NCBI GenBank assembly: GCA_002293365.1
Contig: DBDD01000179.1
Span: forward strand, 1-45,899
Origin: Christensenella sp. UBA941
GTDB taxonomy: Bacteria > Bacillota > Clostridia > Christensenellales > UBA941
DNA length: 45,899 nucleotides
Direction of reading: 5' to 3'
Shown: piece after piece, positions 1 through 33,658 of the stretch
Numbering within the stretch: the first letter of the stretch is position 1
How the letters are laid out: each line of letters opens with the position of its first letter
Translations under genes and position numbers: made by a program
The notes under the pieces: generated by a model
Seen by the model: the letters and a program-made list of their open reading frames with translations, nothing else
What the model was told of the DNA's origin: nothing
Database searches by the model: none

Positions 1-1103
<1,103 letters not shown>

Positions 1104-2099: not shown

Positions 2100-5000
2100 T
2101 TATTTTTTCTTTCTATCCGATTCAACCCACCCCGCAATAAGGTCTTCGGAATAATACTGTTCGAAAGTGCGCTTGCCGTCTTCCATCTTGTAGAGTTCAA
2201 GACTGCCAAGGAGCCGAGTAATTTCATCTATCCCTTGTTGGTCGCCCGCCTTGGATAGCTCAATAACCTTATCCCTGTATTTGCCCGTAATGCTCTTCTT
2301 TATACTTGTTTCATCGCGTCCTAGCTCCTTAAGCTTGTTTATATGCTCGTTCGCCGCCACCGTATCGCCGGTTGCAACCGCGCTGTCCAGGGCTTTCGAC
2401 TGTGCGTCGATAGGCCACGCCTTAACGGTATCCTCCTTCATTCCAAGCTCCTCAACGAGCAATTTTTCAATGCTCGCCGCCTTCGCCATATCGCCCGAGG
2501 TCGCTGCCTCGATATATTCATCCTTATAGGTATCCGTGGCGATACCGCTAAGATAATCCTCCTTGGATTGCGGCATGTTCATCCAGTAGGTCTTATCCTC
2601 CGGTATGCTGTCCTTAATGGCGTCGAGCGCCGCCGTGTCCCCGCTCTCCGCCCGGCGGATAGCCTCCGCGATAGTGTCTTCCGAATAAGCCTCCGGCTCC
2701 CACGGCTTAACCTCTGTGATTTCCGCCTTGTTCGCCCGGCTGATATAAGTGTTGACGGCGCCCAATACGCTGGCTTCGCTGAACCCCTGTTTAACGATTT
2801 CGTTGAATAGCGCCTTATAAGCGTTGTGATCCCACGTGCCACCCATGTCGGGCCGCATGGCGGCAAGTTGGGCAATGCGCGGGTCGTGCTCGATAAGCGC
2901 GTCCCGCACTCCTTGCATAATCCTGTTATTTATCTCCTGTTCCTCGTTGCTGTATTTCGTCCCGGATTTCGCGATGTTCTTGGCGATTTTTTCGCGCAGC
3001 TCCGATTCCAATACCGCCGCCTTCTCTGCGTCGCCGTTTACAAGCGCCTTGTGGATGGATTCATACCCCTTCTTTAGCGTCGCCGTTTCGCTCTCCCATT
3101 GTATTTTGTTGGGAGAAATGGCGTTATAAAGCCCGACGACGTCCCGCATCAGGTTACCCGCCGGTATTCCGGTAATGCCGGATAGCGCGCCCGCACTCTG
3201 GTATATCATCTTATATAGGCTGCTCCTGCTGTCGCCGGATAAATACTTGATCCACGCCCCAGCGACGTTTGCAAGCCGCTCGATGGATTGCATGTCCATC
3301 CTGGCGACGGAGAAGCCTTCGAGTATGGAGAGTATATCCCGCGCGCCGGGTATCATGCCAAGAGGGTGAAGCGCGGCCCCGGCGTTGCTGAAAATAACGT
3401 CCTGAAAGCTTCCGCCCTTCCCGATAAACGCGCTCATGTACTTTTCCAGCCAGGTCTTCTCTTCGTCGTCGTCGCGGAAGGCATCCGCCACAGCCGCAGC
3501 AGCCGCCGCCGCGACGCTGGAAGCAACGAACGTAACGCCCGCGCGCGCGAGCTTCCGCCTGCTGTCTGTGCTCCATTTCTGGTAGGCGTTGTCTATGGCG
3601 GTACGCAGCATGTTATAGCTCTTGGTCGGCTCCGCCATAAAGGCGGTTACGAGCTTCTGCCCGCTGTCCTGGCTTCTCATAATCTCGGAGCGGTGGAATA
3701 CGCTGTCGACCACCTGCGTCCGGTCGATGATCTCGGACAGGCGTTTGCCCACTGCGATATTGTATTCCTCGCTCCCGCGCTTCAGTTCGGGATGACGGTC
3801 GCGCGTCTCCAGCTCCACGGCCCCCCAAAGCGCGCCCCAGGTGATTTTGTCCGCCCACCCGGCCGGGGCCAGCAATACCCCGCGCACCTTATCGAGCCCC
3901 TTCTTGTCGCCGACAATGATTTCGCGCATGGATTGCCCGGTGCGAACGTCATAAAAGCCCCAGTCCTTCCATTGCGCGATGGGGGAGTATTTCAAAGCCT
4001 TCTGTACGCCGTCCTTCACGAAACCGCCGCCCGCAAGGTATTTCGGGCTAATCATGTTCGCCGCCCGGAGGTATGCCGTCGGCTGCTGCAAAACAACGCG
4101 CACATTCGCGCCCACGGCGGATACCTTAGCGTTGCGTAAAAGCTTCTCCATCCAGCCGAGCCCGATGTTCGACGAGCTCGTCCCATTTATGGCGACGATG
4201 AAGTTAATGAAATACTGCTGCCCGCGCTTGCCGACGAGCCTTTCGATGCTCTGTTTAACGCTGACTCCCCCGTCGGTGTAGTTATACCATTTCATGGCGT
4301 CGGAAAGAGGAATAACAAAAGCGTTATAAGAGCTCATTGTATCCACATGGCGGACGAATGTATCGAAGATATCGCCCAAAAGCAGCGCGTTATTCGCCCC
4401 TTCGACGGTCGCCTTAGTCGAGCCGGTGTTTTTAAGGGTCCATATGTCTGCGGTACTATTGCCGTCCTTGTTCAGCGTGCGCGTATAGTTGCTGTCGCTC
4501 CGTATGGGCCAGTAATTCCTTTCCCGGAATTTCTTATACCCCCAAAGCGTCATGGATACATAGTTGCCCCATTGCGAAACGTCGTTTCCAAGGAATTTCT
4601 GCATAGCCTCGGCGATTTGTATTTCCTTTTTCGTAAGCGTGGAGGTAATGCGCTCCACGTCCTCCTCGGTGACGAGCGCCGGCGCGTAGAATATGTTCTT
4701 GCCCTTTGAATCAAGGCGCTTGATGCCGTAGCCGTAGATGTGCCCGCGCGCCTGTTCGCGCTTGTTCAGTATATACAGCTCCATGATGTTCGCTTTGGTC
4801 AGCTCGATCTTTTCGTCGAATATCTCGAAGGTCTGCGTGGGCGCGTTCGGGCCGGAGAGCTTTTGCATATCCACGCCCTTCAAAACCTCTTTCATATACT
4901 CCATAGCGGTGTTGATGTTGCGTACCTTCGCGTCAAAGCCCACGCGCAGCGCGTTCAAGACGGATTCGCCCGCCGGGCCCAGCCGCTCGAAGAAGGAGAA

Positions 5001-8000
5001 CGCGTCCAGCATGGATATATCAATCTTCGTGCTCGGCTTTTTCGCGTTCATCTCCGCGATGGACGCATCGCCCAGGCGCGTCGTTGTCTGATACCGCTCG
5101 TTCGCGTGGGTGGCGTTCGCGTTCACGATCATATGCTTAACCCGGTCCAGCAGGCCGTCCAGCTCCTTCAGCTGGCGTACGCTCATGTTGTAGACGGAGC
5201 CGACGCTTTCGCTCCGCTCGATGAACACGTCGATATCGTTCACGATATCCGGGTCAACGTCGATCATGGAATTAGCGTAGGCCTTGTCGGCGCCGTCCTC
5301 CGCCTTGGATAGCTCCTTGCTAAGCGCGCGCATTTTCGTGCTCCAAAGCACGGAAGCGCCGATCTCCTTGCCGTTATGATATTTCGTAAAGTCCAGCGCC
5401 TGAACCAATCCGCCGACAACCTCGCGCAGCGCGTCGGGCATATGCTTCTTGTCCGAAGGCCGCGTGAGCCGTATATACAGATCCTTCGCGTTGCGAAATA
5501 TCCTGTCCAAGTATTTCTCCGCCGCGTCGCGCCCGGCGCGTTCAACCTCCCGCCAGTCCGATACGCGCGCCTGCCGTTCAAGCAACGCCAAATGGTCCTT
5601 TCCCTTCAGTTTAAAGAATTCATCCCTAACCTTGATCCTCTCTGCAGGGGTAGCCGCCTCGTTATATCGGCGTTCCAGCTCCTGCCGCCGGGCGAACGCG
5701 CTCTGCTGAATGCTCTTAAGCCGCGCCTCCATCTGCTCCTTGGCGTAGGCGCGCGATTTGACAAGGCTCCCCCGTATCTCGGGGGAGTTGGCGTATTCCG
5801 CGAACGCGGTCAAAAACGCGTCGACCGCCGCGCCGTCCAGGTCGTAGCCGTATTCGTTCTGGTAATATACGCTCTTCTTTAGGCTTTGGGCCGCGTTATA
5901 GAGGACGGCGGGTTGGTCGCCTTCGTTCGTATCCGGGGGAAAGAGGTCGGGCCGCATTGATGATAGCTCCTGCCAAGCCTTGTCCAGAGGCACGCCGTTT
6001 TTATTGACGATTTTCACCTTGCCAAAAAGGGAATTACGAAATGCCCGGAAGCTGCCGTTGGCGTATTCCGCCTCCTGCCGCTGTGTGTCGCTTAATACAA
6101 TAGGAGTATTCTTCATGTATTCGCGGGCGTTCGCGTCGGCGTCGAATGCGATTTGGTCGAACGAGCGTGCGTTTTCCAGCACGGGCTTCATAACGGAGGC
6201 CCCGGCCTCGATGAAGTCGCGCGCCGGTATATCCGGGTTTTCGGCGTATGTGCCGATAAGCTCGGTCAGGTTCTCCGCGAAGGTAGCGGCATCGTATTTA
6301 CTGCCTATACGCGTTATGAACTGGTGAGCAATTCGCTCCACTGTCTGCTTATTCAGCGCGCGCGCGCCGCTGGCAGATAATGTCTTATGCAGCTCGGTTA
6401 CGATGCTTTCCGCCTCCTTGAATTTGGTATAGCGCTTGAAGGTATCCTCGGCGACGGGCGAGGGGTCTTGGAGGGAGAAGCGGAAGCGCGCAACATCGGA
6501 TATAACGGGTGCCTCGCCCGTTTCAAAGTAACGTTTTATATCCCGGATGATTCTATCAGCCCTCGTACCTTCCGGGTATTCTACCGAATCCATGTTATAA
6601 CCGTTCTGTGCGCTAAAATCGACGACGATTTCGCCGTTTTTGCTTTCGAAGAAGCGCCGTAGTACGGGTATTTGCTTGCTGTTGGGCTCGACGGATATAT
6701 CAATGCCGTAGCTTTGAAGGCGAACATTGCCTTGGTTCATGAACTCGATAAGCCCGTCGCTATAGCCGGCGTCGTCGGGCAAGTCAAGGATATCGCTTAT
6801 TTCTCGATGATCCAGCGTCCGGGAGCGCTGCCCTTCGCTAAAGTCGAGTAACGAGCCGTTCACAGTCAGATATCCGGCCAAGTCGAAGCGCGATGTCGTG
6901 CCGAAACGGCGCGCCGCCTTGGTTGCAACCGCCTTAGCCGCGTCCGCTTTTGCTTGTTCGTCAGGAACTTCTTCCAGTCCGAGTATCTTCCGTACAGCCT
7001 CAGATTGCATATCGCGAAGGAAGTTTCCTCGTGTATAAAGCGTCTTCGCGTCGTCTGCGCCCCGAACGTCAAACCCAAGGCGTTTTAGTGCCGTGCTAAT
7101 CTTGCTCCAAGTGGCTTTGCTTATGGCGTCGCCGTCGTTAATTCTGATAAGCCCAGCGTCGTTTATTTCTATCTTTCCGTTCGCGATTAGCTCTTGCGTA
7201 TAAGCGGCGTTGGCGTCTTTCAATGAGAATCGGTTAATATCTTTCCCATTTCCCAACGTTTCGCCCTTGTAACTCGGTATCTTTTGCAGTATACTAAACA
7301 AGGAAGACACGCCTGCGCCGGAATTCGCGCCCGCAAGGGACGGCCCGGTCTTGAACGCAGACGTGTTTTCTATTGCGATTTCGTGCAAATAAAAGTCGTC
7401 CTCATCGACCTTTTTTCGCAACACGACACCCATAAGCGCATCTTCGCCGATGTACTTTATCGGAGCAGCTACGACGACGGTATCGTAATTCCTATTTTTC
7501 CAGTTGTGCTGAATATCCAATATCTTGCCCTTTTCGATCACGCTGGGTACCGCCTTGAATGACGCCGCTTTCGCTCGTCCTATACCGTGAGCAATATCCG
7601 CTTTTACGCTCAGTCTGTCGAGTTTGATTTTGCCAACGTCGGGATTAATGGCCTCGTTGCCTATACTCTTGAAATATTCTTCTACCTGAGTTACGAGATC
7701 AATCTGCCCCTTTTGAAACTCATTCCCAGTAATAGTAGCCACAGGCTCCATATTCGCAACAGTGCGATAATTAGCCTCAATATCCTGCGTCGCGGCGAAG
7801 TTCTTGTCCAGCCGGGGAGATAGCCGTACCTCTCCGCCCGTCTCCGCCCGCTGCCGCCTATATTCCCCCGCGTCCTGCACCATGGTATCAAACGTTTCCG
7901 ATATCGTCTGAAGGCTCTCGATATCGCCCTTCAGCGCGTCCATCTGCTGCCAGCTCTTATTTCCGGCTAAGCTGTTATAAATCTCGTTCAGATCGTCGAT

Positions 8001-11000
8001 AAACTTCTTAATAAAGTCCGCGATCTTCTGGAATAACGTCCTGTCCGCCTCGAATATCTGCCGAACATAGCTTTCGTTCGTTAGTATAGCGGGCACATTA
8101 TTGGCGATAACCTCGCCCCTTGCGTCCTTTTCGCTCAGCCTGAATGCTTCCATCTGATACTGGACCTCGGCGTCGAAGTCAACGCCGTTTTTTTCTAAGG
8201 CCTCCCGAACGAAGTCCGCGAACATCTCGAAGCCCTTTGGGTCGTATTCCTCTATGAAGTGGGTAAGCTCATGCACGGCGACGAACATATACCCTTCGTC
8301 TACGGCGTCGAGCGCGATGGTTATGCTGCCCGTCTCGGGGTCAAATTTGCCGTTGGCGTTCCCTCTCTCGGTCTGTATGCTGTCCACAATGGCGATTCCC
8401 ACACCGAGCTTCTTGCCCAGCGCTTCAAGCCCATCGATCTGCATTAACTGCCTCGCGGAGAGTTCTTTGGGATGCACACGCCGCACGCCGGGCGTACCCT
8501 CCTGCTGGCTTCCCATACCCTCTTTAGTAAAGAGGGTGGCGCCCGCAGGCGGCGGGTGTTTTGTCGCGCGTGTTTTACTAGTTTCGTTGACATTTTTGGG
8601 CGTAGTGGGTATACTATTGTTGAACGGATCAGATTCATGCTCGGTATTGGCCGTATAGTCTGGCGGGGGCGCAAGTCCAGCATCAGGCACATGAGAGTAT
8701 CCGTTCTTATTTTTATAAGCGCTTAAAACCCATATAGTTTTGCTTTTGGCGTCGGGAACCGCCTCGGCAACATAATAATAGCCGTTAACCTTCTTTGATA
8801 GCACTACGACCGGCGCAAATTTCCCGCTTGAATCCTTGTATTTCGAACTTAGAACTTGCTTGCCTTCATCGTTATATACGAGCGATGACTGATCATAGTT
8901 TTCAATAACAAACTGAATCCGCCCAATATCATCCGCCGAGGCCATGCTTTGATCCTGCTGCCCTTCCGGGCCGTGCCTCTTGTCTATATGTTCGATTCCG
9001 TCTCGCTGTATACCGTGCTTGTAGTTTGTAACATCAACTCCTGTGAGCTCCTTTATATCACTGGCAAACCGCCCAGAAGCTTCGGACATTGTAATTGGCT
9101 TTATATATTCTTTTGAACCGCTTCGAACCGCCTCGACGGCGTCGACTATTTCGCGGTTCACCGAATCTTCGTATCCCTGTACCGGCGCGGAATAACGAGC
9201 CTCCGCCCGCGCAACCGACCCGGCGTTCTGCCCGGCGGAATATGCCGCCTTCCGCGCCTCGGGCGAAAGCTGCTTTCCTGCTAAGCTTCCTGTAACGGCT
9301 TGTTCAAACGTCTTCCCATTTCGAGCTGCGTTATAGACGGCGCTAAAGCCCTTCGTGTATTCGGCAACGTCGGAGCCGTCGTATCCGCTTATAAGCGCTT
9401 GGGCCGCGCTCGTGTCGAACATGCGCGCTTGATTGTATAGCCGGTCAATGGCGGTATCGTCGATGGTGATGTCGTCCAGCGCCGCCGTCTCGCCGTCGGC
9501 AAGTTGAACGTTTACCTTCCCGTCCTCGACGGAGGCTATACCGGTAACCTCCGTATCGGCGTTGGTGTCGTTATACACGGCGGCTGAGCGGGTTGCAATC
9601 GGGTTTATGGGCGTTTGTGGCTGGGAAAGAGCGTCATTCGTCGGACGCGTCGGTTGCGCCTGTTCTGCGGCAACACCGGGGGCTGCGGCTTCATATTCCG
9701 CCCGGCGGGCAATATCATCCGGCGGCGCGGTTGTACTTGCCGCCCGTTGAGTTTGTGTGTTGTTGGAAGGCGTCGTGCCGATCCGCCCGGCGGCTCCACC
9801 GACTGTGCCAACCGCTGCGCCCGAAAGCGCGCCGCCCGCCCCGGCTAAACCGATATTAACAAGCATGTCGCCGGAGGCGCGTTTCTTTGCGGCATCTTCC
9901 GACATGCCCGCCTGTATATAGCTTTTCACGGCGTTATTATAGTTGGACATGTCGCCCATGATCGTGTTATCGGCTACTATATTGGCTATCTCGGTAGCCA
10001 TTTCTTCGGAGGCTTCAATTCCTGCCTGTTTAAACGTGTTTTTTATAAAATCGCCGCGCCCTACGCCGGTTAAGCCGATGAAATGATCCAGGCTGAACTT
10101 CTCGAATATCAGCTCCGCCATGCCGCTCCAAAATCCAACGGTAAGCGCCTGCTCCTGTGTCGCGCCACGGTCAAGCGCGTCTAAGGTTGCGTTCGTCGCC
10201 GCGCCGGTTCCCATAATGACGCTTGCCGCCGTACTCGCCCACGGCCCGAAAGCTGACGAATACGCGCTGTTCGCAAGGAAATCCCCTGTCGACATGCCCG
10301 TGTTGTATAAAAACGCCGCCGCCTCGCCGCCGAGGCCCGGTAGCGCGCCCTTTATATTTTGCGAAACCGCACCCCTTGTTGTGCTGCGGAAGCGCGACGC
10401 GTCAAACATTGGATCGTTTGGATCAATCTTCGCGCCCGCAATTTGCTTACCCACGGATTTTACGAATGCCTCTCCTTCAGCGGGAGCGGCCAATACGGAC
10501 AGTATACTTGCGGGTACTGGATATTCCGTCGCCGCCTTTTGTGTCAGCTCGGAGGTGAACGCCGCGCTCCGCTCCTTCAAGTAGGTATCGAGAAATCCAG
10601 TGTATTCCGAGGCGGCTTGTGGCCCATGCTTTGCTAGAATAGCGTAGAATACGTCCTCCTCCGCATCGGTTCTATATCTATGGTCGTATGGCGTATTACC
10701 GATACCTTTGGTGAGCACTGGATCAACGTTCCTTCCGCCGGTCGCTTGGCTCGCAATTCCTTCAAGCCCAAGCCCAAGCGCGAAATCGCCGGAGGAGGAC
10801 GCCGCGCGGGTTTTGTCAGTTTGTATCTGCCTGCCCTGGCGCGCAAGCTCCTTGAATTCCGGCGTACCGTAGCCAATATCATTTTCATACCGGGCCTGCT
10901 GCTGTAAATATTCTGCCTGCCGGTAATCACTCTCCGCCGCTCGAACTTGTGGCGTCAATCCGCTTAATCGCTCCGTAGCGATTTTCGCGGCGTCGTTTAG

Positions 11001-11780
11001 CGCCTGTGCATGAGCAATATTCGCAGTACCGCCGAATATGCCGGGACGGTTGTTTACCGCATTAGCGCGCTTGACTACTTCCTCCGCGTCCGCCTGTTGC
11101 TCGCGCAGCTCGTCTAGCTGTGTGCGCCCGGCGGCAAGGTCAAGGTCTAAAAGGCGCTCCCGCTCCGCCTCTGCGTCCTCCTGTTGCTTCAAGGCTTTAT
11201 CCATTCGCTGCTGCTCGTAAGTGCTCTGCGCGTCTAAAAGGCGAGAACGCGCGGCGCGCGTTTCATTCGGTATATTGATCCTATTGGCTGGGTTCAGCTC
11301 ATTAAGCCAAGGCTGTCGACTAACCTCTTTCACTGGTTGCAGTCCCGGAACGTCCTCCGGCGTCAAGCTGTAGGGGTTTGCCAACTTCTTTGAACGCTCC
11401 TGATCATCAACCATCTGCCGCGCCATTGATTTCATAGCCTGTTCGAAATACACTGGGTTAAGCGGCTTAATAAGCGGCTTAATAAGCGGCTTAATACCAG
11501 GACGATTGGCGTTCAACGCGTCGAATACGGGATTACGCGCCCGCTCTGCCGCCATGCTCGTGACAATGCGTTCTTCGTCCTCGTTCTTCCTGGGCTGCGG
11601 TGTGACGCTCGCATAGTAATCAGACGCCCGAATAGGCTTTGCTGCCGAGCCCGGTGGTTTGAAACCGGCTTCGAGCTTATTAATAATGCGGTAGCGTCGC
11701 GGTCGCTTCTCTTCATTGCGTTGTTCGCGGGTATCGCGCATCCCGCGATTCCTGCGCTCGTATTTGTCTATAATCGACAT
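2100..11780 (-). CDS. Giant (3226 aa) multi-domain virion-associated protein of the polyvalent / ejection-protein type
   Basis: This is a single uninterrupted ORF. Approximate domains:
- charged coiled-coil N-terminus;
- Gly/Ala-rich hydrophobic block (about aa 470-690);
- H-x2-KRH domain GIEHIDKRHG (about aa 880-1020), like phage barnase/EndoU/RelE-type nuclease domains of polyvalent proteins;
- zincin motif VAVHELTHF (H1170-E-x-x-H1174, nt 8257-8276);
- a further LPD-like domain (about aa 1350-1470);
- a long alpha-rich C-terminal half ending in five xGDxxxAxxxIxxL repeats.
It lies among the tail genes. Confidence 0.6.
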   Translation of the reverse strand: MSIIDKYERRNRGMRDTREQRNEEKRPRRYRIINKLEAGFKPPGSAAKPIRASDYYASVTPQPRKNEDEERIVTSMAAERARNPVFDALNANRPGIKPLIKPLIKPLNPVYFEQAMKSMARQMVDDQERSKKLANPYSLTPEDVPGLQPVKEVSRQPWLNELNPANRINIPNETRAARSRLLDAQSTYEQQRMDKALKQQEDAEAERERLLDLDLAAGRTQLDELREQQADAEEVVKRANAVNNRPGIFGGTANIAHAQALNDAAKIATERLSGLTPQVRAAESDYRQAEYLQQQARYENDIGYGTPEFKELARQGRQIQTDKTRAASSSGDFALGLGLEGIASQATGGRNVDPVLTKGIGNTPYDHRYRTDAEEDVFYAILAKHGPQAASEYTGFLDTYLKERSAAFTSELTQKAATEYPVPASILSVLAAPAEGEAFVKSVGKQIAGAKIDPNDPMFDASRFRSTTRGAVSQNIKGALPGLGGEAAAFLYNTGMSTGDFLANSAYSSAFGPWASTAASVIMGTGAATNATLDALDRGATQEQALTVGFWSGMAELIFEKFSLDHFIGLTGVGRGDFIKNTFKQAGIEASEEMATEIANIVADNTIMGDMSNYNNAVKSYIQAGMSEDAAKKRASGDMLVNIGLAGAGGALSGAAVGTVGGAAGRIGTTPSNNTQTQRAASTTAPPDDIARRAEYEAAAPGVAAEQAQPTRPTNDALSQPQTPINPIATRSAAVYNDTNADTEVTGIASVEDGKVNVQLADGETAALDDITIDDTAIDRLYNQARMFDTSAAQALISGYDGSDVAEYTKGFSAVYNAARNGKTFEQAVTGSLAGKQLSPEARKAAYSAGQNAGSVARAEARYSAPVQGYEDSVNREIVDAVEAVRSGSKEYIKPITMSEASGRFASDIKELTGVDVTNYKHGIQRDGIEHIDKRHGPEGQQDQSMASADDIGRIQFVIENYDQSSLVYNDEGKQVLSSKYKDSSGKFAPVVVLSKKVNGYYYVAEAVPDAKSKTIWVLSAYKNKNGYSHVPDAGLAPPPDYTANTEHESDPFNNSIPTTPKNVNETSKTRATKHPPPAGATLFTKEGMGSQQEGTPGVRRVHPKELSARQLMQIDGLEALGKKLGVGIAIVDSIQTERGNANGKFDPETGSITIALDAVDEGYMFVAVHELTHFIEEYDPKGFEMFADFVREALEKNGVDFDAEVQYQMEAFRLSEKDARGEVIANNVPAILTNESYVRQIFEADRTLFQKIADFIKKFIDDLNEIYNSLAGNKSWQQMDALKGDIESLQTISETFDTMVQDAGEYRRQRAETGGEVRLSPRLDKNFAATQDIEANYRTVANMEPVATITGNEFQKGQIDLVTQVEEYFKSIGNEAINPDVGKIKLDRLSVKADIAHGIGRAKAASFKAVPSVIEKGKILDIQHNWKNRNYDTVVVAAPIKYIGEDALMGVVLRKKVDEDDFYLHEIAIENTSAFKTGPSLAGANSGAGVSSLFSILQKIPSYKGETLGNGKDINRFSLKDANAAYTQELIANGKIEINDAGLIRINDGDAISKATWSKISTALKRLGFDVRGADDAKTLYTRGNFLRDMQSEAVRKILGLEEVPDEQAKADAAKAVATKAARRFGTTSRFDLAGYLTVNGSLLDFSEGQRSRTLDHREISDILDLPDDAGYSDGLIEFMNQGNVRLQSYGIDISVEPNSKQIPVLRRFFESKNGEIVVDFSAQNGYNMDSVEYPEGTRADRIIRDIKRYFETGEAPVISDVARFRFSLQDPSPVAEDTFKRYTKFKEAESIVTELHKTLSASGARALNKQTVERIAHQFITRIGSKYDAATFAENLTELIGTYAENPDIPARDFIEAGASVMKPVLENARSFDQIAFDADANAREYMKNTPIVLSDTQRQEAEYANGSFRAFRNSLFGKVKIVNKNGVPLDKAWQELSSMRPDLFPPDTNEGDQPAVLYNAAQSLKKSVYYQNEYGYDLDGAAVDAFLTAFAEYANSPEIRGSLVKSRAYAKEQMEARLKSIQQSAFARRQELERRYNEAATPAERIKVRDEFFKLKGKDHLALLERQARVSDWREVERAGRDAAEKYLDRIFRNAKDLYIRLTRPSDKKHMPDALREVVGGLVQALDFTKYHNGKEIGASVLWSTKMRALSKELSKAEDGADKAYANSMIDVDPDIVNDIDVFIERSESVGSVYNMSVRQLKELDGLLDRVKHMIVNANATHANERYQTTTRLGDASIAEMNAKKPSTKIDISMLDAFSFFERLGPAGESVLNALRVGFDAKVRNINTAMEYMKEVLKGVDMQKLSGPNAPTQTFEIFDEKIELTKANIMELYILNKREQARGHIYGYGIKRLDSKGKNIFYAPALVTEEDVERITSTLTKKEIQIAEAMQKFLGNDVSQWGNYVSMTLWGYKKFRERNYWPIRSDSNYTRTLNKDGNSTADIWTLKNTGSTKATVEGANNALLLGDIFDTFVRHVDTMSSYNAFVIPLSDAMKWYNYTDGGVSVKQSIERLVGKRGQQYFINFIVAINGTSSSNIGLGWMEKLLRNAKVSAVGANVRVVLQQPTAYLRAANMISPKYLAGGGFVKDGVQKALKYSPIAQWKDWGFYDVRTGQSMREIIVGDKKGLDKVRGVLLAPAGWADKITWGALWGAVELETRDRHPELKRGSEEYNIAVGKRLSEIIDRTQVVDSVFHRSEIMRSQDSGQKLVTAFMAEPTKSYNMLRTAIDNAYQKWSTDSRRKLARAGVTFVASSVAAAAAAAVADAFRDDDEEKTWLEKYMSAFIGKGGSFQDVIFSNAGAALHPLGMIPGARDILSILEGFSVARMDMQSIERLANVAGAWIKYLSGDSRSSLYKMIYQSAGALSGITGIPAGNLMRDVVGLYNAISPNKIQWESETATLKKGYESIHKALVNGDAEKAAVLESELREKIAKNIAKSGTKYSNEEQEINNRIMQGVRDALIEHDPRIAQLAAMRPDMGGTWDHNAYKALFNEIVKQGFSEASVLGAVNTYISRANKAEITEVKPWEPEAYSEDTIAEAIRRAESGDTAALDAIKDSIPEDKTYWMNMPQSKEDYLSGIATDTYKDEYIEAATSGDMAKAASIEKLLVEELGMKEDTVKAWPIDAQSKALDSAVATGDTVAANEHINKLKELGRDETSIKKSITGKYRDKVIELSKAGDQQGIDEITRLLGSLELYKMEDGKRTFEQYYSEDLIAGWVESDRKKK
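11461..11496 (-). repeat. Perfect 12-bp x3 in-frame tandem repeat (encodes KPLI x3)
   Basis: The plus-strand unit agcggcttaata is repeated three times, and the protein reads RPGIKPLIKPLIKPLNP. Confidence 0.95.
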
Positions 11781-11783
11781 AGG

Positions 11784-13100
11784 CTATCTCCGTCCGCTCG
11801 TATACGCGTTCAGTTCTTCCAGCATTTCATACATTGCATTCTTCTGCTTGGCTGTATAGTTTGTTCCTGCAATTGCTTGTCTGGGGTCGCGCATTCCGCC
11901 GCCGCTATTCCAGATATTAATAACAACGTTTTCGAGCTGATCGACAGTTTTACCGTCTATCATCTTGTATGGATCGACGGCCTTGGAACTGCTCTTACTA
12001 CTCGAACCGCCCGAGCTTCCGCCGCTTCGCGCCTTCTGCGCGGCAAGCCCATATTCTTTCTCCCAATTCTGTTGCGCAAGCGAATCCTGCGATTGCTGGT
12101 AGGCGAACTGCTGCGCCCAATTCTGTTGCGCCAACTGGTCTTGTGACGCGCCGTAGTTGAAAGCGCGGTCGCTTTCGAAGTCGCTAACCTGGTCGCGATA
12201 CACGCCGTAGCCGAAGTTACGGTTGTCTTGCCAATCCGAGACGTTATCCCGATGAGCGCCGTAATCGCGGGCATAAGCCGCGTCGTAACGGTCGGCGGCG
12301 TAACCCCTGTCGCTGTACCAATCGCCGACAGTATCGCGGTGACGCCCATAATCCGTATTATCAAGGCCCTGCAAAAGCCCCATCTGGTTGTACATTTCCT
12401 GCCCCTCGTCGCGGTACATGCCGTAGGCGGCGTCGCGAAGCTGGGGGATAACGTCGTTCAAATTCTGTAAATATCCCTGGTACGCCTGCTGTCCCGCCGT
12501 CTGCGCGTAGGAGTTGCCGTATCCGCCGGAGAGCGCCGCCGCGTTTCCCATCGTATCAAGCATCGCCATTTTGCCCTTTTGCTGATACTGCTGGGCATAT
12601 TGCTGATACATGGGGTCTGAGGCGAAGTCGTAGCTGAACTTTTCGCGGTTCATTATTTTATCCAGAATACCTTGTATCTGGGTTGCATAATTACTCTGAT
12701 AAGCGCCCGGCCTGCTGCCTTCAATCTGTGCGAGCCGCGCCGCCGCATCATTGACGGCTCCCGACGGCGAGTATGTCGGCGCGCTGCCGTAGTTCGGGGA
12801 ATATGACGGCCTGTTTCCGTAATTGGTGAGAAAATTGACGGTAGGATTGTTGTTCGTCGGAGCTTGCGTAGAATTTGTACTCCCCGTATTCTGCCATAGG
12901 GAGGATAGAGTTTGCGTGCCGACAATGCCGTCCACTTGAAGGCCATACTTCTGCTGATAATCGCGGACGGCCTGTTGCGTCTGGCTCCCAAATATGCCAT
13001 CGGTGGCGAGACTATAGCCATTCTGATTGAGCAGCTTTTGAATCTCGGAAACAGCGCTGCCGCTCTGTCCTAATTTGATATTGCCTATCGACGCCGCCAT
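11784..13100 (-). CDS. Peptidoglycan-binding-domain protein with a Q/Y/N/D-rich repetitive body (putative virion/ejection protein)
   Basis: The N-terminus GQSGSAVSEIQKLLNQNGYSLATDGIFGSQTQQAVRDYQQKYGLQVDGIVGTQT matches PG_binding_1. Internal repeats are YGRHRDTVGDWYSDR / YGAHRDNVSDWQDNR / VYRDQVSDFESDR and QDQLAQQNW / QDSLAQQNW. No catalytic lysin motif was recognised. Confidence 0.55.
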   Translation of the reverse strand: MAASIGNIKLGQSGSAVSEIQKLLNQNGYSLATDGIFGSQTQQAVRDYQQKYGLQVDGIVGTQTLSSLWQNTGSTNSTQAPTNNNPTVNFLTNYGNRPSYSPNYGSAPTYSPSGAVNDAAARLAQIEGSRPGAYQSNYATQIQGILDKIMNREKFSYDFASDPMYQQYAQQYQQKGKMAMLDTMGNAAALSGGYGNSYAQTAGQQAYQGYLQNLNDVIPQLRDAAYGMYRDEGQEMYNQMGLLQGLDNTDYGRHRDTVGDWYSDRGYAADRYDAAYARDYGAHRDNVSDWQDNRNFGYGVYRDQVSDFESDRAFNYGASQDQLAQQNWAQQFAYQQSQDSLAQQNWEKEYGLAAQKARSGGSSGGSSSKSSSKAVDPYKMIDGKTVDQLENVVINIWNSGGGMRDPRQAIAGTNYTAKQKNAMYEMLEELNAYTSGRR

Positions 13101-13101
13101 G

Positions 13102-14373
13102 TTAAGCCTCCTTTGCTTCCAGCTTTAAAAGCCGTTCTTCTAGCGCTACAATGCGCTGATCCTGTGCGGCTATGCGTTTTTCCTGCGCGTTCGCGCGCCG
13201 CTTTAGCGCCGTAATGTCTTTACGCGCGCGAGCCCACTGTTTCTCTATCTTTTTTAAGCGCTTGCGCTGCCTTTGCGCCTCATCAACCAAAATAACGGTA
13301 ATCCTGTCGTATGCAAGTGTGAGCACTTGCTTCTTCATGCTGCAATCTTTAAACTTTCGAACAAGCTCCGGGCAGTATTTCTTAACATTATCAGCAATAA
13401 GACCAATTTGCGGCGTCTTGTCGGGATCATCAATCATGTTGTATCGCACGCACCTAAGCTTGTCGATTATGTCTTCGGAAAACGGCTTAATATTCTCTTT
13501 AAGCCTACGCATAGAGTAGCTCCCGACGGAACCGCCGGAGGAATAGAGGTATTGCGCGACACACTGGCTCCAAGCGCGCCCGCCGACGCCTACATTACCT
13601 CGTTGGTGAGAAGGCGGAATAACACTCACGTCATTGTACCCGCTGACTTGGCCGATATAGATTCCAGCTATACTTATATAGTTTGGATAGAAGAATACTT
13701 GCCCGTTTGCAGCGCTTAATGTCGTAAACGTTCCGCCAGCAGCCGATAGGTTTCCTGAGAACGTACCATTTACGCCGGATAGCGTGCCCGTAAACGTGCC
13801 GTCAGCCGCATTAAGATGCCTTACATACAGGCCGTTCACGTCAATATAGTTCGCGGATACCACTCCTGTTGTAATCAGCCCCGCATTGATGGAGCCGGTA
13901 GTAATATTGCTCCCGTTGATGGTTGTCGCGCCGGGCGTCGAAAGGCTCGTAAATGATACAAGACCGGACATATTTATTGTCTGGCTGGCAATGACGGTAT
14001 TACCAGCGGTAAGCTGTATTACGCTCGAAGTCGCGCCGTTTGATACGGAGAGCGTAAGGCTATGCGCATACTGGTCTATGCGCGAGATATCGCCCATCAT
14101 GTTTTGCACGGAAAGCTGAATACTGTCCGCCGTGCGCCTGATGGATGATATATTTCCCCAAGCGTCTTGCAGATCGTCGGAGAGCGCGGACGCCTTCTGA
14201 TACGCCCCTTCGATGGATTCTTTAAGCTCGTCCGAAAGGTTCTCGGCTCCCAGATTATTTAGGACAAAGCGAAGCTGCTCCGTCAGCGTATAAAGGTATT
14301 CCAGTATAAGCCGACGCTGCTTTTCGCTGGACAAATCGCTTTCTTTTATATCGGGCAAGGAGAATAAATCCAC
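13102..14373 (-). CDS. Tail fibre/spike with C-terminal intramolecular-chaperone (Peptidase_S74-like) domain
   Basis: The segment ...GSYSMRRLKENIKPFSEDIIDKLRCVRYNMIDDPDKTPQIGLIADNVKKYCPELV... followed by a coiled coil is typical of S74 auto-cleaving chaperone domains. The centre contains G/T/S-rich beta-helix-like repeats (GTFTGTLSGVNGTFSGNLSAAGGTFT). Confidence 0.7.
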   Translation of the reverse strand: MDLFSLPDIKESDLSSEKQRRLILEYLYTLTEQLRFVLNNLGAENLSDELKESIEGAYQKASALSDDLQDAWGNISSIRRTADSIQLSVQNMMGDISRIDQYAHSLTLSVSNGATSSVIQLTAGNTVIASQTINMSGLVSFTSLSTPGATTINGSNITTGSINAGLITTGVVSANYIDVNGLYVRHLNAADGTFTGTLSGVNGTFSGNLSAAGGTFTTLSAANGQVFFYPNYISIAGIYIGQVSGYNDVSVIPPSHQRGNVGVGGRAWSQCVAQYLYSSGGSVGSYSMRRLKENIKPFSEDIIDKLRCVRYNMIDDPDKTPQIGLIADNVKKYCPELVRKFKDCSMKKQVLTLAYDRITVILVDEAQRQRKRLKKIEKQWARARKDITALKRRANAQEKRIAAQDQRIVALEERLLKLEAKEA

Positions 14374-16088
14374 TAAATCTCACTCCCTTGCTCAATAGTT
14401 TTGGTAAGGGAGTAAACGCGGCATTCGCCCGTACCCCAAAGCCGTATACGCATAGTATCGCAGCGCCTCGGAATTATCGGCACGGTGAACGAACGCTTAT
14501 TCGTTATATTGATACGGTATTTTTCGGTCCATGCATCCTCGCCGTCGTATCTGATATCAACGTGAATCAGCGCATTATCCTCGACCTCAATGCGGAGTTG
14601 CAACTTTGAAATATACTTATTGTCCGGGCTGTTCATGCCGATATCGCCCGTCTCGGCATACCACGTTACCGGCCCTTCGAGCTTCGCGCCGTCGCCGTAG
14701 CGGTCGAGGCTCCCGTTCACCGAGTACAGTGTATTATCCGCGATAAAATACAGCTCCCCATCGAGCGCGGCGAAGTCGGAGGCATAGATATCATCCTCCT
14801 TGTGCCACATGGCCGTGCGCTCGTCGTGGACGAGGATAACGCCAGTTCCATCGTCGTGCAGCATCGAAATATAATATTTCGTCCCGATTGCGCCGCCTCT
14901 TGCGCTCATGTACGATGTGCTGCCAAGGGCGTCGGATATAGTGGTGGGGAGGGCGGAATTATACGCGACAACGCTCCCGCGCGCCTTATAGTAAAGAGTT
15001 TCGTTTACGAGCGCGAGGCTCTTTTCGCTGCCCTTCTCTACGCCTCGGCAGTTCGTATTAGTAATCTGGTAATTGCCCGGCTTATTGCCGTAAACTTTAT
15101 GTATCACGTCCTCTTTGAAAAAGAGAACGTAGCCCAAGTGAGTAAAGCAGCCGGTGAAGGCTCCGCTGGTGCCTACGGTCGCGGCGTAGCTGTCGGTGGA
15201 TATGCCCATGTAGCAGTTCCAATTCTTAGCGTCGCCGAGCTTACAGGCGTATATCTCATGCTTTTCAGAAGAGCAGCCCCATACCCGATTCTCGCTCTCG
15301 CAAAGATAATCCATATCGGGTATCTTCCGCTCGATTGTAACGGGCGTAGACTGAGTTGCAACCGCGTTTATAAGCGCTGTGATGATTATATAGTCATCTC
15401 CTACGGCTTGCAGGATAAATTCGCCGTTGAGGTCAGTATTGTCCATGCCCGAGATACTAACGCCGTCATGCTCACCGAACGCGGCTCCAATGCCGGTCGC
15501 AGATATCTTTGCATAAGTGGTGGGAACGCTTTGCCACATGCCTTGAGTGGATGAGTATATTTTGAGGACGTTCGGCGTGCTGCTTGTATCGATCCAGAGC
15601 GCGCCGTTCGCTGGGCTGGCCGGAGCCGTCGCCGAAACTGTATATCCTGTATAGTCCGTACCGTCCAGCTTACAGAGCGATATTGTCACTGTACCGCCGG
15701 TAGTTGTCTTTGCGCCCAGCGAGCCGAACTCGCCGGTCGTGCTGTTGTAATAAACCTTGTCCGGCCATATAAGCACATACGCGCCCATGCCTACGAATTG
15801 CTTCGGGCTGTCCTTGACCGTTCCGACCATAGCGCCGTCGTAATAAAAATCAGTACCGTCTACCCAGCACAGTTTTTCGTGCGCATACAGGCCGTTGGGC
15901 TTCGCGAACTTTCTCAGTATCCCGCGCCTGCGCCGAGGAGCCAGCAGAGGATAGAGGTCGCCCGAACAATTGCGCATATCGTAAAATTCGTTCTCCTGAA
16001 TGCGGAGGTTATGATTATAACCCCCGAAATCGTTTATCATTTCGCGGGTGGTAATCATTGGTTTCAGCATCGGCAATGTGTATCCCAT
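14373..16088 (-). CDS. Tail structural protein (putative nozzle/hub; beta-propeller-like repeats)
   Basis: The 571-aa ORF lies between the adaptor-like gene and the tail fibre and overlaps the next gene by 1 nt. It has recurrent strand-like motifs (YVLIWPDKVYYN, GYVLFFKEDVIHKVYG, TLYYKARGSVVAYN, TKYYISMLHDDG, ELYFIADNTLYSVNG). I did not recognise a family. Confidence 0.4.
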   Translation of the reverse strand: MGYTLPMLKPMITTREMINDFGGYNHNLRIQENEFYDMRNCSGDLYPLLAPRRRRGILRKFAKPNGLYAHEKLCWVDGTDFYYDGAMVGTVKDSPKQFVGMGAYVLIWPDKVYYNSTTGEFGSLGAKTTTGGTVTISLCKLDGTDYTGYTVSATAPASPANGALWIDTSSTPNVLKIYSSTQGMWQSVPTTYAKISATGIGAAFGEHDGVSISGMDNTDLNGEFILQAVGDDYIIITALINAVATQSTPVTIERKIPDMDYLCESENRVWGCSSEKHEIYACKLGDAKNWNCYMGISTDSYAATVGTSGAFTGCFTHLGYVLFFKEDVIHKVYGNKPGNYQITNTNCRGVEKGSEKSLALVNETLYYKARGSVVAYNSALPTTISDALGSTSYMSARGGAIGTKYYISMLHDDGTGVILVHDERTAMWHKEDDIYASDFAALDGELYFIADNTLYSVNGSLDRYGDGAKLEGPVTWYAETGDIGMNSPDNKYISKLQLRIEVEDNALIHVDIRYDGEDAWTEKYRINITNKRSFTVPIIPRRCDTMRIRLWGTGECRVYSLTKTIEQGSEI

Positions 16089-16877: not shown

Positions 16878-17897
16878 TTAATTTGATTCCGCCATCGGGT
16901 TCGATTCCGAGCCGTGCTCAACACGGCACGCATACTGCTGTACCAGCATCTCAGCCACGGCCATAGCTTTCCAGCCAGCCGTTGCGCGCTGATTCAGCGG
17001 GTCCGACGTACCGGCGGAGCCGAGCGGCTTCACGATATGCTTCAACCCGCCGCCCTCAACGCTTGTCACGCCGTAGGAATGCTGGCCGAAGAACATGGAG
17101 CAGTAAACCGCACAGCCGTCAGCGCCAGCGCCGCCAACGATCTTCGCCTCGGTGGATTCGACGAAGCGAACGCCGCCGAGCCGCCCGATTTCGCCCCTGT
17201 AAATGTTCTCGGGCGTCGTATACTTATGCGCCTCAGTCCACCCGTCACTGTTCATGATATCGCAGGCGGTGTCAGGGTGGATTACGGCGACGTAGTAGCC
17301 GTCCGAAAACGGGAGCGTGTTATACCGCCGCAGCTTCGCCACAACTTGATTGATAACTTTGGGCGTCAGCAAACAGGATCCGTCAATGTCGCCGCGCATG
17401 AGCACTTCGGAGCCGTCCGCCTTGGGCGGGTAGGTGACGTTTGTACCGGCGGTAACGATCTCCCTGGTAACGGTGTCCAGCGTGCGGCCCGCCTGCGAGC
17501 CCAAGAGCTGCATCGCTATTTCGAGGTTCGGATCAATCGCCGTCAGGTCCAATACGTCGGATATCTCGATGAAATCGCCGTACTGATCCACTTCGGCGTT
17601 GATCTTGGTAACGTCGAGCTTGTTGCCTTCCGGGGTCACGCCTTCCGTAAGGGGCGTGGTCGCTTTATCGAGCGGGGTGTATTTGCGGAACTCGATGATT
17701 TTGCCGCCGCCCTTTGGGATCGGCTTCTTGTCGCCGAACTGATTGTATACGAGATTGGGCTCCGCGTTGTCGATGAGCCGCTTATCGTAGTATGTTTTCA
17801 TCTCCGGGCTCAAATCGTTGCCCGGCGTGTTTAGGAGGGTCGTTTGCGTATCAAACAACCGGAGGTTCAGGATAACTAATATCTTTGGCTTAACCAT
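16878..17897 (-). CDS. Major capsid protein (HK97-fold type) with a cleavable N-terminal leader
   Basis: The 339-aa ORF follows the scaffold gene. Its sequence pattern (..NLVYNQFGDKKPIPKGGGKIIEFRKYTPL..) is typical of phage major capsid proteins. The N-terminal ILNLRLFD matches the Prp-type leader. AAGGAG lies upstream. Confidence 0.75.
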   Translation of the reverse strand: MVKPKILVILNLRLFDTQTTLLNTPGNDLSPEMKTYYDKRLIDNAEPNLVYNQFGDKKPIPKGGGKIIEFRKYTPLDKATTPLTEGVTPEGNKLDVTKINAEVDQYGDFIEISDVLDLTAIDPNLEIAMQLLGSQAGRTLDTVTREIVTAGTNVTYPPKADGSEVLMRGDIDGSCLLTPKVINQVVAKLRRYNTLPFSDGYYVAVIHPDTACDIMNSDGWTEAHKYTTPENIYRGEIGRLGGVRFVESTEAKIVGGAGADGCAVYCSMFFGQHSYGVTSVEGGGLKHIVKPLGSAGTSDPLNQRATAGWKAMAVAEMLVQQYACRVEHGSESNPMAESN

Positions 17898-18905: not shown

Positions 18906-19244
18906 TTATTTCTCCCCGTCGTTTACCACTAGGCGTACATGATCCGGGTATCGATCTTCCAACAAGGCGAATCCGGCGACGATCACGCCCAATATCGTCT
19001 TAACTTTTGCAAGCGACCAATAATCCGCGACCATATCAATAGTTAGTCCGCCTTCTGTCTCTTCGTGCTGCAATTTAAACAGCGACCGCTTTTCTTTGAG
19101 CTCATGCGCGCATTGCAGCAGGGTATATGACAGCGTAGAGCATGACGCGCATACGATATCGGGGCCTCCGTTCCCGTAATTCGCGTGTCCCAATATAGAA
19201 ATAAAGAATTTATTGCCGTTCTCATAAAAAGTTGCAACTGTCAT
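18906..19244 (-). CDS. prp: Prp-like cysteine protease (ribosomal-processing cysteine protease family, DUF464)
   Basis: The 112-aa ORF contains ISILGHANYGNGGPDIVCASCSTLSYTL, which carries the GHA...(I/V)VCA(A/S) His/Cys signature of Prp. It lies between portal and scaffold, as in many Firmicutes phages. Confidence 0.7.
   Translation of the reverse strand: MTVATFYENGNKFFISILGHANYGNGGPDIVCASCSTLSYTLLQCAHELKEKRSLFKLQHEETEGGLTIDMVADYWSLAKVKTILGVIVAGFALLEDRYPDHVRLVVNDGEK
18908..18925 (-). repeat. 18-nt late-junction element, copy 2
   Basis: The sequence is identical to 2078-2095. It overlaps the last codons and stop of the Prp gene (..VNDGEK*), upstream of the scaffold gene. Confidence 0.8.
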
Positions 19245-23909: not shown

Positions 23910-24329
23910 TCATATTTTTTTTACATATTCGACCGTTGCGGCCAGTTGCTCCGCCATGCAAGCTTTTTCTTCATTCTCGCCGCCCGTCGGTTCCGCCGCC
24001 TTCCGCCATTCGTCATACATGATGATCTCTTTCTCGCTGGCGACGGCGCAGCCGTACTCATACCGCGCACCCATACTATCCTTCCAGTCATTCAGGAAAC
24101 AGGCTATGTCGCACGCTTCAAGCATCGCGCCTGTTATGCGCAGGCATCCTATGTAATCCAGACCGTAGCGGGGTAGAGCCTCCGCAGGATTGAGGACGAG
24201 ATAGCCCGCTTTTTCAAGCTGATGCTTGGCTTCGTAAAATTTCGACCAATACCATTCGTCGCCGGTTATCTTGCCCGAGAGAAATACCGACCGCTGAACG
24301 CCGTTTGTTGCTGCATCAATCATTTTCAT
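23910..24329 (-). CDS. DUF4406-like protein (nucleoside 2-deoxyribosyltransferase-like fold)
   Basis: The segment VFLSGKITGDEWYWSKFYEAKHQLEKAGYLVLNPAE matches the (I/L)SGxxTG...F..A...L...G..V.NP signature of DUF4406. It has an extra C-terminal tail of about 30 aa. Confidence 0.55.
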   Translation of the reverse strand: MKMIDAATNGVQRSVFLSGKITGDEWYWSKFYEAKHQLEKAGYLVLNPAEALPRYGLDYIGCLRITGAMLEACDIACFLNDWKDSMGARYEYGCAVASEKEIIMYDEWRKAAEPTGGENEEKACMAEQLAATVEYVKKI

Positions 24330-24337
24330 TCCTCCCG

Positions 24338-25003
24338 CTAAACAGCCTGTTTTCCTTGAATGCGCACAGGCAGCAAAACAGCGTCACCCGCCTCACACGT
24401 AAAATACAAGGGTTTATTCGGCGATTCGGTCGCAAATGCTTTCGCGTCCGGGAATGCCGTAAGAATATCGATTAGGTAATTTGCTTGCACGGCGGGTAAA
24501 TTACCTCCGAAATCGTAGTTTATGAAACCGCCTATACTCTCGGCTTTTTTGATTCTATAATGCGCTTTCAATTCCGCCATTGTTGGAAGATCGAGAGGAA
24601 CAGTCGCCCCTTCCATGGCTTCATCGAATACCGTCTTCATACCGTCGCTGGGAATACCCTGCGCTGATACCATCTCTATCGGACTGTTTAGCCTTATCGC
24701 CCGGTGTCCGTCACATACGCACTGTTTGCCTTCACAATCGAACGCGCCCCTTAATTTATCCTTTCCGGCGGTTTTGATAATGGCTTTCATAGCCTTGGCG
24801 ACATTCGCCTTGCCGCTTGCTTTATTTGCCTCCATGCGCATATCTTCGCGGAGCGCCGCGCAAAGCTCGATGAGCGGCCCTATATCCATCACACTGCATA
24901 ATCTTTTAGGAAATTCCGTAATCGCGCGGTCGATGTTTACTACGCTTTCGCGGTTACAAAGGTATTCGTAAATTGTTTGGTATATTGTGTTTTTATTAGG
25001 CAT
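24338..25003 (-). CDS. DNA polymerase III beta-clamp-like domain protein (truncated, about 221 aa)
   Basis: I moved the start to ATG 25003, which has AAGGGAGA upstream. KQCVCDGHRAIRL resembles the clamp motif ATDGHRL. The C-terminus NYLIDILTAFPDAKAFATESPNKPLYFTCEAGDAVLLPVRI resembles the clamp C-terminal strand pattern (YL.D.L......P......MP.R). Confidence 0.5.
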   Translation of the reverse strand: MPNKNTIYQTIYEYLCNRESVVNIDRAITEFPKRLCSVMDIGPLIELCAALREDMRMEANKASGKANVAKAMKAIIKTAGKDKLRGAFDCEGKQCVCDGHRAIRLNSPIEMVSAQGIPSDGMKTVFDEAMEGATVPLDLPTMAELKAHYRIKKAESIGGFINYDFGGNLPAVQANYLIDILTAFPDAKAFATESPNKPLYFTCEAGDAVLLPVRIQGKQAV

Positions 25004-27208: not shown

Positions 27209-27555
27209 GCGCCCCACTCCAACAAATCCGCCCCCGCCATATCGCCCCAATCCGCCGCCTCGCCCGGCTCCTCGTCCAGCCAATTCCGCCCGAATATCTG
27301 CATGAACTCCTCGCGCGTTCCATGCACACGCTCAAAAGCGCGCTGTCCGTCGCATTTTAGGGCGTAATCTTTTTCGGCGTTATGATGCACGCCCCGCGGG
27401 GGCTCGTTATGCTCGTCGTGCGCAAGGTAGACGAACAGGCCGTATATCTCGCTCCATTTGCGGTTCGCGCCGCCGAAAACGTGATGCTTTTCAAGGCTAT
27501 CCGTCCGGCCCGAGAGGTAACTCTCACGCCCGTTTTGCATGATACTTTTTTTCAT
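27205..27555 (-). CDS. Conserved phage protein, unknown function
   Basis: The 116-aa ORF has GAGG upstream. The pattern HHVFGGANRKWSEIYGLFVYL...GVHHN...LK..GQRAFE...GTREEFMQIFGRNWL recurs in Firmicutes phages as far as I recall. The Zn-ligand positions appear degenerate here. Confidence 0.4.
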   Translation of the reverse strand: MKKSIMQNGRESYLSGRTDSLEKHHVFGGANRKWSEIYGLFVYLAHDEHNEPPRGVHHNAEKDYALKCDGQRAFERVHGTREEFMQIFGRNWLDEEPGEAADWGDMAGADLLEWGA

Positions 27556-33621: not shown

Positions 33622-33643
33622 AAACTTTCCTCCTTCTTATACA

Positions 33644-33658
33644 ACGTGCCGCCCGGTG
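33644..33658 (-). promoter_or_regulatory. GC-rich start-associated box with 5' extension
   Basis: The plus strand reads acgtgccgcccggtg. It lies 22 nt before start 33621. On the minus strand it is preceded by AGCGCAGACGCGCAC. Confidence 0.5.

Follow-up and report, generated by a model that had tools for sequence, protein, structure and literature searches.

A cysteine-free 3226-residue polyvalent protein of a Christensenella prophage: conserved helical modules with swappable cargo

What does a temperate phage gain from spending about a quarter of its genome on one protein? The question is raised by a prophage within a 45,899-nucleotide stretch of Christensenella sp. UBA941 DNA (contig DBDD01000179.1; the whole stretch is called the window below). 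A preliminary description of it had noted an uninterrupted open reading frame (ORF) of 9.7 kb, and the ORF listing and its translation bear this out: from an ATG start, 3226 codons without internal stop occupy 2100..11780 of the minus strand, to which the coordinates of all parts of the gene given below also refer. The gene takes up 9681 of the 37350 nt of visible prophage (26%, against a quarter in the earlier estimate). It is not a chance reading frame, since it has 53 homologues of 2010-5524 aa and its product matches PHROG 22978 with an E-value of 1e-226. The product, here called the giant protein, has a mass of 355 kDa, an isoelectric point (pI) of 5.6 and no cysteine in its 3226 residues; cysteine is scarce throughout the family (0-0.45%). 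Because about a quarter of a 40-kb genome is spent on it, this protein must matter greatly for infection.

Polyvalent proteins are recognized by their characteristic domains and by the place of their genes, which lie with the late virion genes in phages that have a portal and a terminase (Iyer et al. 2017, PMC5512222). The giant protein contains the Pfam domains PBECR3 and LPD3 and a zincin-type HExxH...E arrangement, its gene lies among the late virion genes of a portal/terminase phage, and its single chain joins at least two domains of disparate activity (PBECR3, the zincin module, LPD3 and others). At the level of sequence, these features support the assignment as a polyvalent protein that had been put forward earlier. 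With the proteins surveyed by Iyer et al. it shares unrelated domains in one chain, the pairing of PBECR with LPD, a zincin hub and mosaic cargo. It differs from them in that its zincin is too divergent for the Pfam model MPTase-PolyVal, no MuF domain is present, and about half of the chain consists of an all-alpha N-terminal module (N-module) and a C-terminal core (C-core) which match no Pfam model. The giant protein is a new, divergent member of the phage-type polyvalent proteins, the class described in 2017, and as a classification this mainly confirms that work. What the preliminary description overlooked is that the N-module and C-core, conserved and non-enzymatic-looking, make up most of the protein, recognizable effector domains being a minority of its length.

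A fixed chassis with swappable cargo

The homologues were obtained by a word-indexed search of a 5.8-billion-protein collection and lie on contigs mostly of 8-68 kb. The identity of the giant to anything in that collection does not exceed 40%, over 39% of its length. BLAST coverage fell into three blocks, with aa 370-670 reached in about 31 of the 53 homologues, aa 1100-1310 in about 35 and aa 2000-2900 in 44. N-module, zincin and C-core recur in the same order across the set, while the cargo varies: between zincin and C-core the homologues carry ART-PolyVal, PBECR5, ddrB-ParB, LPD23, MuF_C or an SNF2 helicase, and PBECR3, LPD3 and a domain marked by a DHRE motif are common to few of them. The alignments show that the family consists of a fixed chassis (N-module, zincin and C-core) with swappable cargo around the zincin. 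The giant's own cargo is PBECR3, LPD3, a small alpha/beta domain and the DHRE domain.

The part that defines the family is the conserved, all-alpha C-core (aa 1794-3022, 2715..6401). PHROG 22978, a family of unknown function, matches over precisely this region and is the sole PHROG family matched by the giant; no Pfam model matches the C-core. An AlphaFold2 (AF2) model of aa 1790-2960 is almost wholly helix, with a mean predicted local distance difference test score (pLDDT) of 76.8 and a predicted template modelling score of 0.66, in line with the roughly 1700 aa of helical sequence expected from the letters alone. When this model was compared by Foldseek with the predicted viral structures of BFVD, 80 matches with E <1e-3 were obtained (best 3e-58), all of them pieces of giant uncultured-phage proteins that had been named after their other domains. 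A hydrophobic helix at aa 2743-2770 is followed by RDDD. Behind the C-core comes an acidic tail (aa 3033-3226, 2103..2684) of four helical repeats of about 40 aa around G-D-x3-A, of which a fifth copy was seen at about aa 2930.

The N-terminal half was modelled by AF2 over aa 350-1545 from a curated alignment of 22 rows. The conserved all-alpha N-module (aa 369-659, 9804..10676; about 31 of the 53 homologues by BLAST) has a pLDDT of about 80-90. A Gly/Ala-rich hydrophobic block had been described at about aa 470-690, and Gly plus Ala do amount to 27-34% across aa 401-700, with the hydrophobic peak, the highest of the whole protein, in a helix at aa 638-664. As modelled, this block is a conserved, confidently predicted all-alpha domain (aa 369-659) and not low complexity; neither Pfam nor the PDB gave a match for it. 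The two hydrophobic helices, at aa 638-664 and 2743-2770, fall on the family-consensus motifs G-A-L-S-G and A-x-R-D-D-D, respectively. The highly charged basic region in front of the N-module (aa 1-350, 10731..11780; pI 9.3) is reached by two of the 53 homologues, from about aa 276, and its first 250 residues are matched by none. It contains an (IKPL)x3 repeat, encoded by a perfect tandem repeat of 12 nt x 3.2 at 11459-11496. On its other side, the N-module is followed by a disordered linker rich in T, P, A and Q (aa 660-733, 9582..9803; pLDDT <40).

A phmmer search of a 1.84-billion-protein library with the C-core gave 4275 cluster representatives at E <=1e-3, 2799 of them at E <=1e-30. In the matches listed, the C-core lies in the C-terminal part of proteins mostly of 2000-4500 aa; a few are shorter and may be truncated. 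The one apparently stand-alone C-core protein that was checked, P0155, is probably truncated, because its start lies only 49 nt from the contig end, and it was set aside. In a set with one genome per species, at least 149 genomes had C-core relatives; Clostridia (Oscillospiraceae, Lachnospiraceae, Ruminococcaceae and similar) account for almost all of the 80 listed. Among 72,556 plasmids, no match to the C-core and one match to the N-module were found. On these sequence searches, the distribution of the C-core is phage-specific. No near-identical DNA was found in cultured phages, the phage collection holding no cultured relative of this phage group, and tblastn with the giant protein matched nothing but human-faecal contigs without annotation and, in F116-like phages, the LPD3 stretch. 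The family is thus very common in gut Clostridia prophages, yet its largest module is without Pfam model, functional annotation or structural relative.

Enzyme-like domains and a boundary motif

The PBECR3 domain (aa 906-1026, 8703..9065) matched its Pfam model with an E-value of 9e-12 and 45.4 bits, the cut-off being 30. The motif GIEHIDKRHG, pointed out earlier as the mark of a domain, lies at aa 928-937 within this match. His931 and His936 (in E-H-I-x3-H-G) and Ser1020 (in S-A-Y) are kept in all four aligned PBECR3 sequences, and they fit the active-site pattern of His plus Ser/Thr given for PBECR (Iyer et al. 2017, PMC5512222). The domain is predicted from its sequence to be an RNase-like domain of the BECR fold with intact-looking catalytic residues.

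A Pro-rich linker (aa 1030-1099, 8484..8693) leads to the zincin-like metallopeptidase module (aa 1100-1310, 7851..8483), delimited by an alignment of 18 sequences and by the AF2 model. The sequence VAVHELTHF, which had drawn attention at nt 8257-8276, spans nt 8256-8282 (aa 1167-1175), its HExxH being aa 1170-1174. In the alignment, the only invariant columns are His1170, Glu1171, His1174 and Glu1223; HExxH with a downstream Glu is the arrangement given for the metallopeptidases of polyvalent proteins (PMC5512222). The modelled unit (aa 1100-1274, pLDDT 75-92) consists of a helix, a beta-sheet, the HExxH helix and more helices, an order that agrees, as far as the model goes, with the zincin fold. 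Sub-threshold Pfam matches in the zincins of the 18 sequences (DUF6782 in five, MPTase-PolyVal in two and M78 in two) converge on metallopeptidase families.

Three further cargo domains were delimited. The small alpha/beta domain (aa 734-864, 9189..9581) was modelled with pLDDT >90 and is common to about nine homologues by BLAST coverage. The globular domain suspected at about aa 1350-1470 turned out to be LPD3 (aa 1328-1478, 7347..7799; pLDDT >90), with a Pfam match at aa 1362-1464 that is borderline against the cut-off of 27 bits (26.9 bits with the whole protein, 27.7 bits with a 1196-aa segment). The DHRE-motif domain (aa 1625-1764, 6489..6908) is a discrete unit with RFS motifs on both sides; it has no Pfam model and recurs in four homologues that bear other cargo.

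No match was returned for the giant protein by NCBIfam, or by PDB sequence searches with the whole protein, the zincin profile and the C-core profile; Foldseek comparison of both AF2 models with the PDB gave no match with E <0.26. Weak NTF2-like and helical-transporter matches of the models were not used. These searches bear on the proposal that a tape-measure protein, or a virion RNA polymerase of the N4/crAss type, is hidden in the helical region. The large size and the helical content would suit either, one homologue has a stray weak match to Tape_meas_lam_C (E 0.095), and N4-like virion RNA polymerases are themselves polyvalent proteins with zincin domains (PMC5512222). However, lenient Pfam scans of 22 N-terminal halves found no MuF N-domain, tape measure or RNA polymerase, the giant has no tape-measure match in PHROG or Pfam, no RNA-polymerase match was seen in Pfam, PDB-sequence or Foldseek searches, and the model is without palm-type or double-psi beta-barrel elements. 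In addition, the prophage has no tail tube, sheath or chaperone genes. A substitute for the tape measure, as had been suggested, is unlikely because there is no tail tube to measure. Both identities were rejected on these grounds (no Pfam, PHROG or fold match, no tail tube and an all-alpha model), and we hold them to be scarcely probable at all.

The domains of the giant protein are bounded by a short motif, R-[F/Y]-S. It occurs three times, against 0.9 expected: as RYS at aa 862-864 (9189..9197), where the small alpha/beta domain ends before PBECR3; as RFS at aa 1517-1519 (7224..7232) after LPD3; and as RFS, within RFRFS, at aa 1767-1769 (6474..6482) before the C-core. Every copy lies at the junction of two domains defined by AF2 or Pfam. 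A related R-L-S is found at aa 1319-1321. In 194 family proteins, the extended form [DGN][IVL]R[FY]S is present in 91 copies, against 4.9 expected, spread over 71 proteins, and is often preceded by ERF[ND]-x4-D. Of the seven copies in the family protein P0046, five flank the DHRE, ART and LPD23 domains and two lie outside the mapped domains. We regard R-[F/Y]-S as a candidate processing site of a polyprotein. Zincin-mediated processing was predicted by Iyer et al. (2017, PMC5512222), whose passages on cleavage and processing name no defined site; the motif was not found in that text when it was searched for cleavage and processing terms. If R-[F/Y]-S is the cleavage site, the long-standing idea of a zincin-self-processed polyprotein becomes directly testable.

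Gene setting and proposed role

The late genes are read on the minus strand in the order small and large terminase, P22/SU10-like portal, a 112-aa gene (18906-19244), a 297-aa protein without assigned function, placed where the scaffold usually lies, the major capsid protein (16878-17897), a pair of small proteins, a 571-aa protein homologous to a PHROG 'internal virion protein', an S74-chaperone fibre (13102-14373), a 438-aa protein with an N-terminal PG_binding_1 domain (11784..13100), the giant, and a BppU_N/collagen fibre (1116-2033). This order shows that the giant is the last large gene of a late structural operon, directly after the gene of a peptidoglycan-binding protein. GGAG lies 9-12 nt 5' of its ATG. 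With the stop codon of the PG_binding_1 gene 3 nt before that ATG, translation of the two genes is probably coupled. The same order, with PG_binding_1 directly upstream, was found in two contigs with giants that share 26-40% identity with this one. A third related contig has a similar gene series ending in a giant, with neither Pfam labels nor a PG_binding gene. Each of the three contigs is about 30-43 kb long and belongs to a temperate phage, as seen from an integrase or serine recombinase. No gene for a tail tube, sheath, tape measure or chaperone was found in this prophage, nor one for a tube, sheath or tape measure in the three related contigs; together with the P22/SU10-like portal, this gene content supports a temperate prophage of the short-tailed, podovirus type.

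The position between two fibre genes (S74 at 13102-14373 and BppU/collagen at 1116-2033) could speak for an exposed virion structure, such as a giant central fibre, needle, adhesin or wall-degrading appendage outside the tail. The protein is, however, almost wholly helical, no beta-helix, Ig-like, collagen or receptor-binding domain was seen in it, it has long disordered linkers, and its enzyme domains (RNase and zincin) are of an intracellular type. We therefore take an exposed structure to be very improbable. The giant might also be no virion protein but a late cytoplasmic factor for host takeover, superinfection exclusion or abortive infection, which is merely sited in the late operon. Action against competing elements is noted as a possibility for some polyvalent proteins (Iyer et al., PMC5512222), and the phage collection contains no cultured relative of this group. 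Yet the gene keeps its fixed tail/fibre position and its coupling to a structural-type neighbour in relatives only 26-40% identical, an RNase freed late in infection would be of little obvious use, and the phi24B precedent described below favours packaging. A non-virion role thus appears quite improbable.

The ejection-protein genes of P22 and T7 sit between tail and fibre genes. Their products (gp14, gp15 and gp16 of T7; gp7, gp16 and gp20 of P22) are helical proteins thought to extend the short tail across the envelope. The giant resembles them in being helical and in its gene position between tail and fibre genes, but they are several separate small or medium proteins whereas the giant is one polyprotein, and Foldseek and HMM comparisons of the giant with solved ejectosome structures of the T7 type in the PDB gave neither a fold nor a sequence match, though the giant could still act in an analogous way.

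Closer in size is gp47 of the Stx phage phi24B, a temperate podovirus. It is a 2811-aa polyvalent protein with LPD domains and a metallopeptidase; mass spectrometry found it in abundance in virions, yet it cannot be seen in the cryo-EM map, and it has been proposed to be an encapsidated ejection protein (bioRxiv 10.64898/2026.04.10.717836). Like the giant it is cysteine-poor (2 Cys in 2807 residues). It differs in its Gram-negative host and in its gene position, which is at the genome end with small ORFs and lom between it and the fibre genes. Searches with hmmsearch and hhalign found no relation of the C-core to gp47, and the similarity of the zincins is weak. F116-like (Hollowayvirus) Pseudomonas podophages encode a giant of 3782 aa with a 'PLxRFG domain' and two HExxH motifs; these phages are temperate too, and their giant gene likewise closes the structural module. 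The two giants are 26% identical (E 4e-15) over aa 1246-1531, the stretch with LPD3; the N-module and C-core were undetectable in the podophage protein. In Pseudomonas phage Baskent_P6 this gene lies at 4324-15672, and its counterparts in sister genomes are labelled structural protein, internal virion polymerase or DNA methyltransferase. The experimental basis for delivery with the DNA comes from N4 gp50 and P1 DdrB/DarB, large proteins with zincin domains which are encapsidated and injected, as summarised in PMC5512222; zincin-mediated processing and delivery with DNA were proposed by Iyer et al. in the same work. By description, which is the only level at which they were compared, the giant differs from these proteins in having no RNA polymerase, methylase or helicase domain.

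From the gene position and the precedents of phi24B gp47 and N4 gp50, we infer by analogy that the giant is packaged and injected. That it is an ejection protein is argued from the gene position as in P22 and T7, the helical, linker-rich and Cys-free chain, the hydrophobic helices and the precedents. The protein would be made late and a few copies built into the capsid, where the conserved helical chassis would probably serve for docking or as an internal core. At infection, it would pass out by way of the portal and the short tail, either before the DNA or together with it, and the helical Cys-free chain with its two hydrophobic helices may help to bridge or breach an envelope that is beyond the reach of such a tail. 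Once inside the cell, it would be cut by its zincin at the linkers between domains, for which the R-[F/Y]-S motifs are candidate sites, and the RNase and other cargo thus freed would act within the first minutes on RNAs and proteins of the host or its defences. As a whole, a polyvalent protein that is packaged and ejected, aids envelope crossing and is cut by its zincin to release cargo is the explanation that we consider probable, with some reserve; the injected multi-effector of the preliminary description remains the best-supported, though unproven, model.

Several points weigh against this explanation. Packaging, ejection, cleavage and enzymatic activity are all steps that we infer only. 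The proteins of phi24B and the F116-like phages are, by sequence, analogues and not homologues of the chassis, with at most LPD3 or a weak zincin likeness in common. The best Foldseek match of the C-core in the PDB had an E-value of 0.28 and its profile search there was empty; since the C-core has no similarity to a solved ejection protein or PDB fold, a structural role is argued for it from conservation and position only. As to the enzymes, the PBECR3 region was modelled with low AF2 confidence, no Pfam metallopeptidase model matched the zincin module at cut-off, and the multi-domain model of the N-terminal half, zincin included, gave no significant Foldseek match in the PDB. The motif R[FY]S is absent from some family members, for example P0025, and may just as well cap the ends of domains structurally instead of being a cleavage site.

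The lack of fold likeness to T7-type ejectosome proteins in the PDB also bears on whether the giant has any part in crossing the envelope. It may be packaged cargo only, an injected multi-effector whose N-module and C-core serve for capsid targeting, portal docking or compaction and form no conduit, while the envelope is penetrated by, for example, the PG-binding neighbour and the 571-aa homologue of the 'internal virion protein'. These neighbouring genes could provide the penetration functions, and the C-terminal region of N4 gp50 is required for its encapsidation, as cited in PMC5512222. On the other hand, about 1200 conserved residues (137 kDa) are large for a targeting tag, and two conserved hydrophobic helices hint at membrane contact. 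The observations fit this reading and the ejection model alike, and we find packaged cargo alone rather unlikely. A more far-reaching form of the ejection model is that the chassis is a new, single-polypeptide ejectosome of short-tailed Clostridia phages, stored in the capsid, spanning wall and membrane and cut by the zincin at R-[F/Y]-S. This we regard as unlikely; if true, the chassis would be a natural modular protein-injection device present in thousands of gut prophages. Should packaging and self-processing of the giant be confirmed, the family would be a tractable system for studying the passage of short-tailed phages through thick Gram-positive walls, and would supply a catalogue of early-acting anti-host and anti-defence domains.

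Other features of the prophage

The right end of the prophage is marked by a tyrosine integrase gene (36081-37313, plus strand), which adjoins a tRNA-Val gene (37358-37433, minus strand); beyond it lie host genes, e.g. for an HtrA-type protease. The host of the prophage is probably a member of the Clostridia. At the left, a gene for a fibre of collagen (G-X-Y) repeats (1-1096, minus strand), next to the BppU_N/collagen gene, extends beyond the window, which therefore does not contain the left end of the prophage. No repeat of the tRNA region that could be attL was found in the window, because the prophage runs off its left end.

The major capsid protein starts with MVKPKILVILNLRLF|D, which presumably resembles the L27/Prp cleavage motif. 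The 112-aa gene, with a His...Cys pattern, stands where related contigs have Pfam Peptidase_Prp. The capsid start and this gene suggest, from sequence, a Prp-type capsid maturation. A Prp-like protease was also considered as the cutter of R[FY]S; the capsid N-terminus ILNLRLF|D is unlike that motif, and the idea was left as speculation.

Upstream of the terminase, at 23910-27283 on the minus strand, lie genes for a nucleoside 2-deoxyribosyltransferase-like protein, a DNA methyltransferase and a PAPS-reductase-like protein, a cluster that may modify DNA or nucleotides. In the replication/early region, a stand-alone ORF of 253 aa (30389-31150, minus strand) had no Pfam match. It matches internal segments of PHROG profiles of giant phage proteins, for example phrog_11358 (3431 positions), phrog_10691 (3925) and phrog_15406 ('DNA methyltransferase', 2789), and is possibly a polyvalent-protein domain that occurs on its own. 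Adjoining the integrase, an island at 33000-36100 has a low GC content (40-45% versus about 54%) and contains a plus-strand gene for a 403-aa protein with a C-terminal SHOCT domain, which may be a moron or a defence gene.

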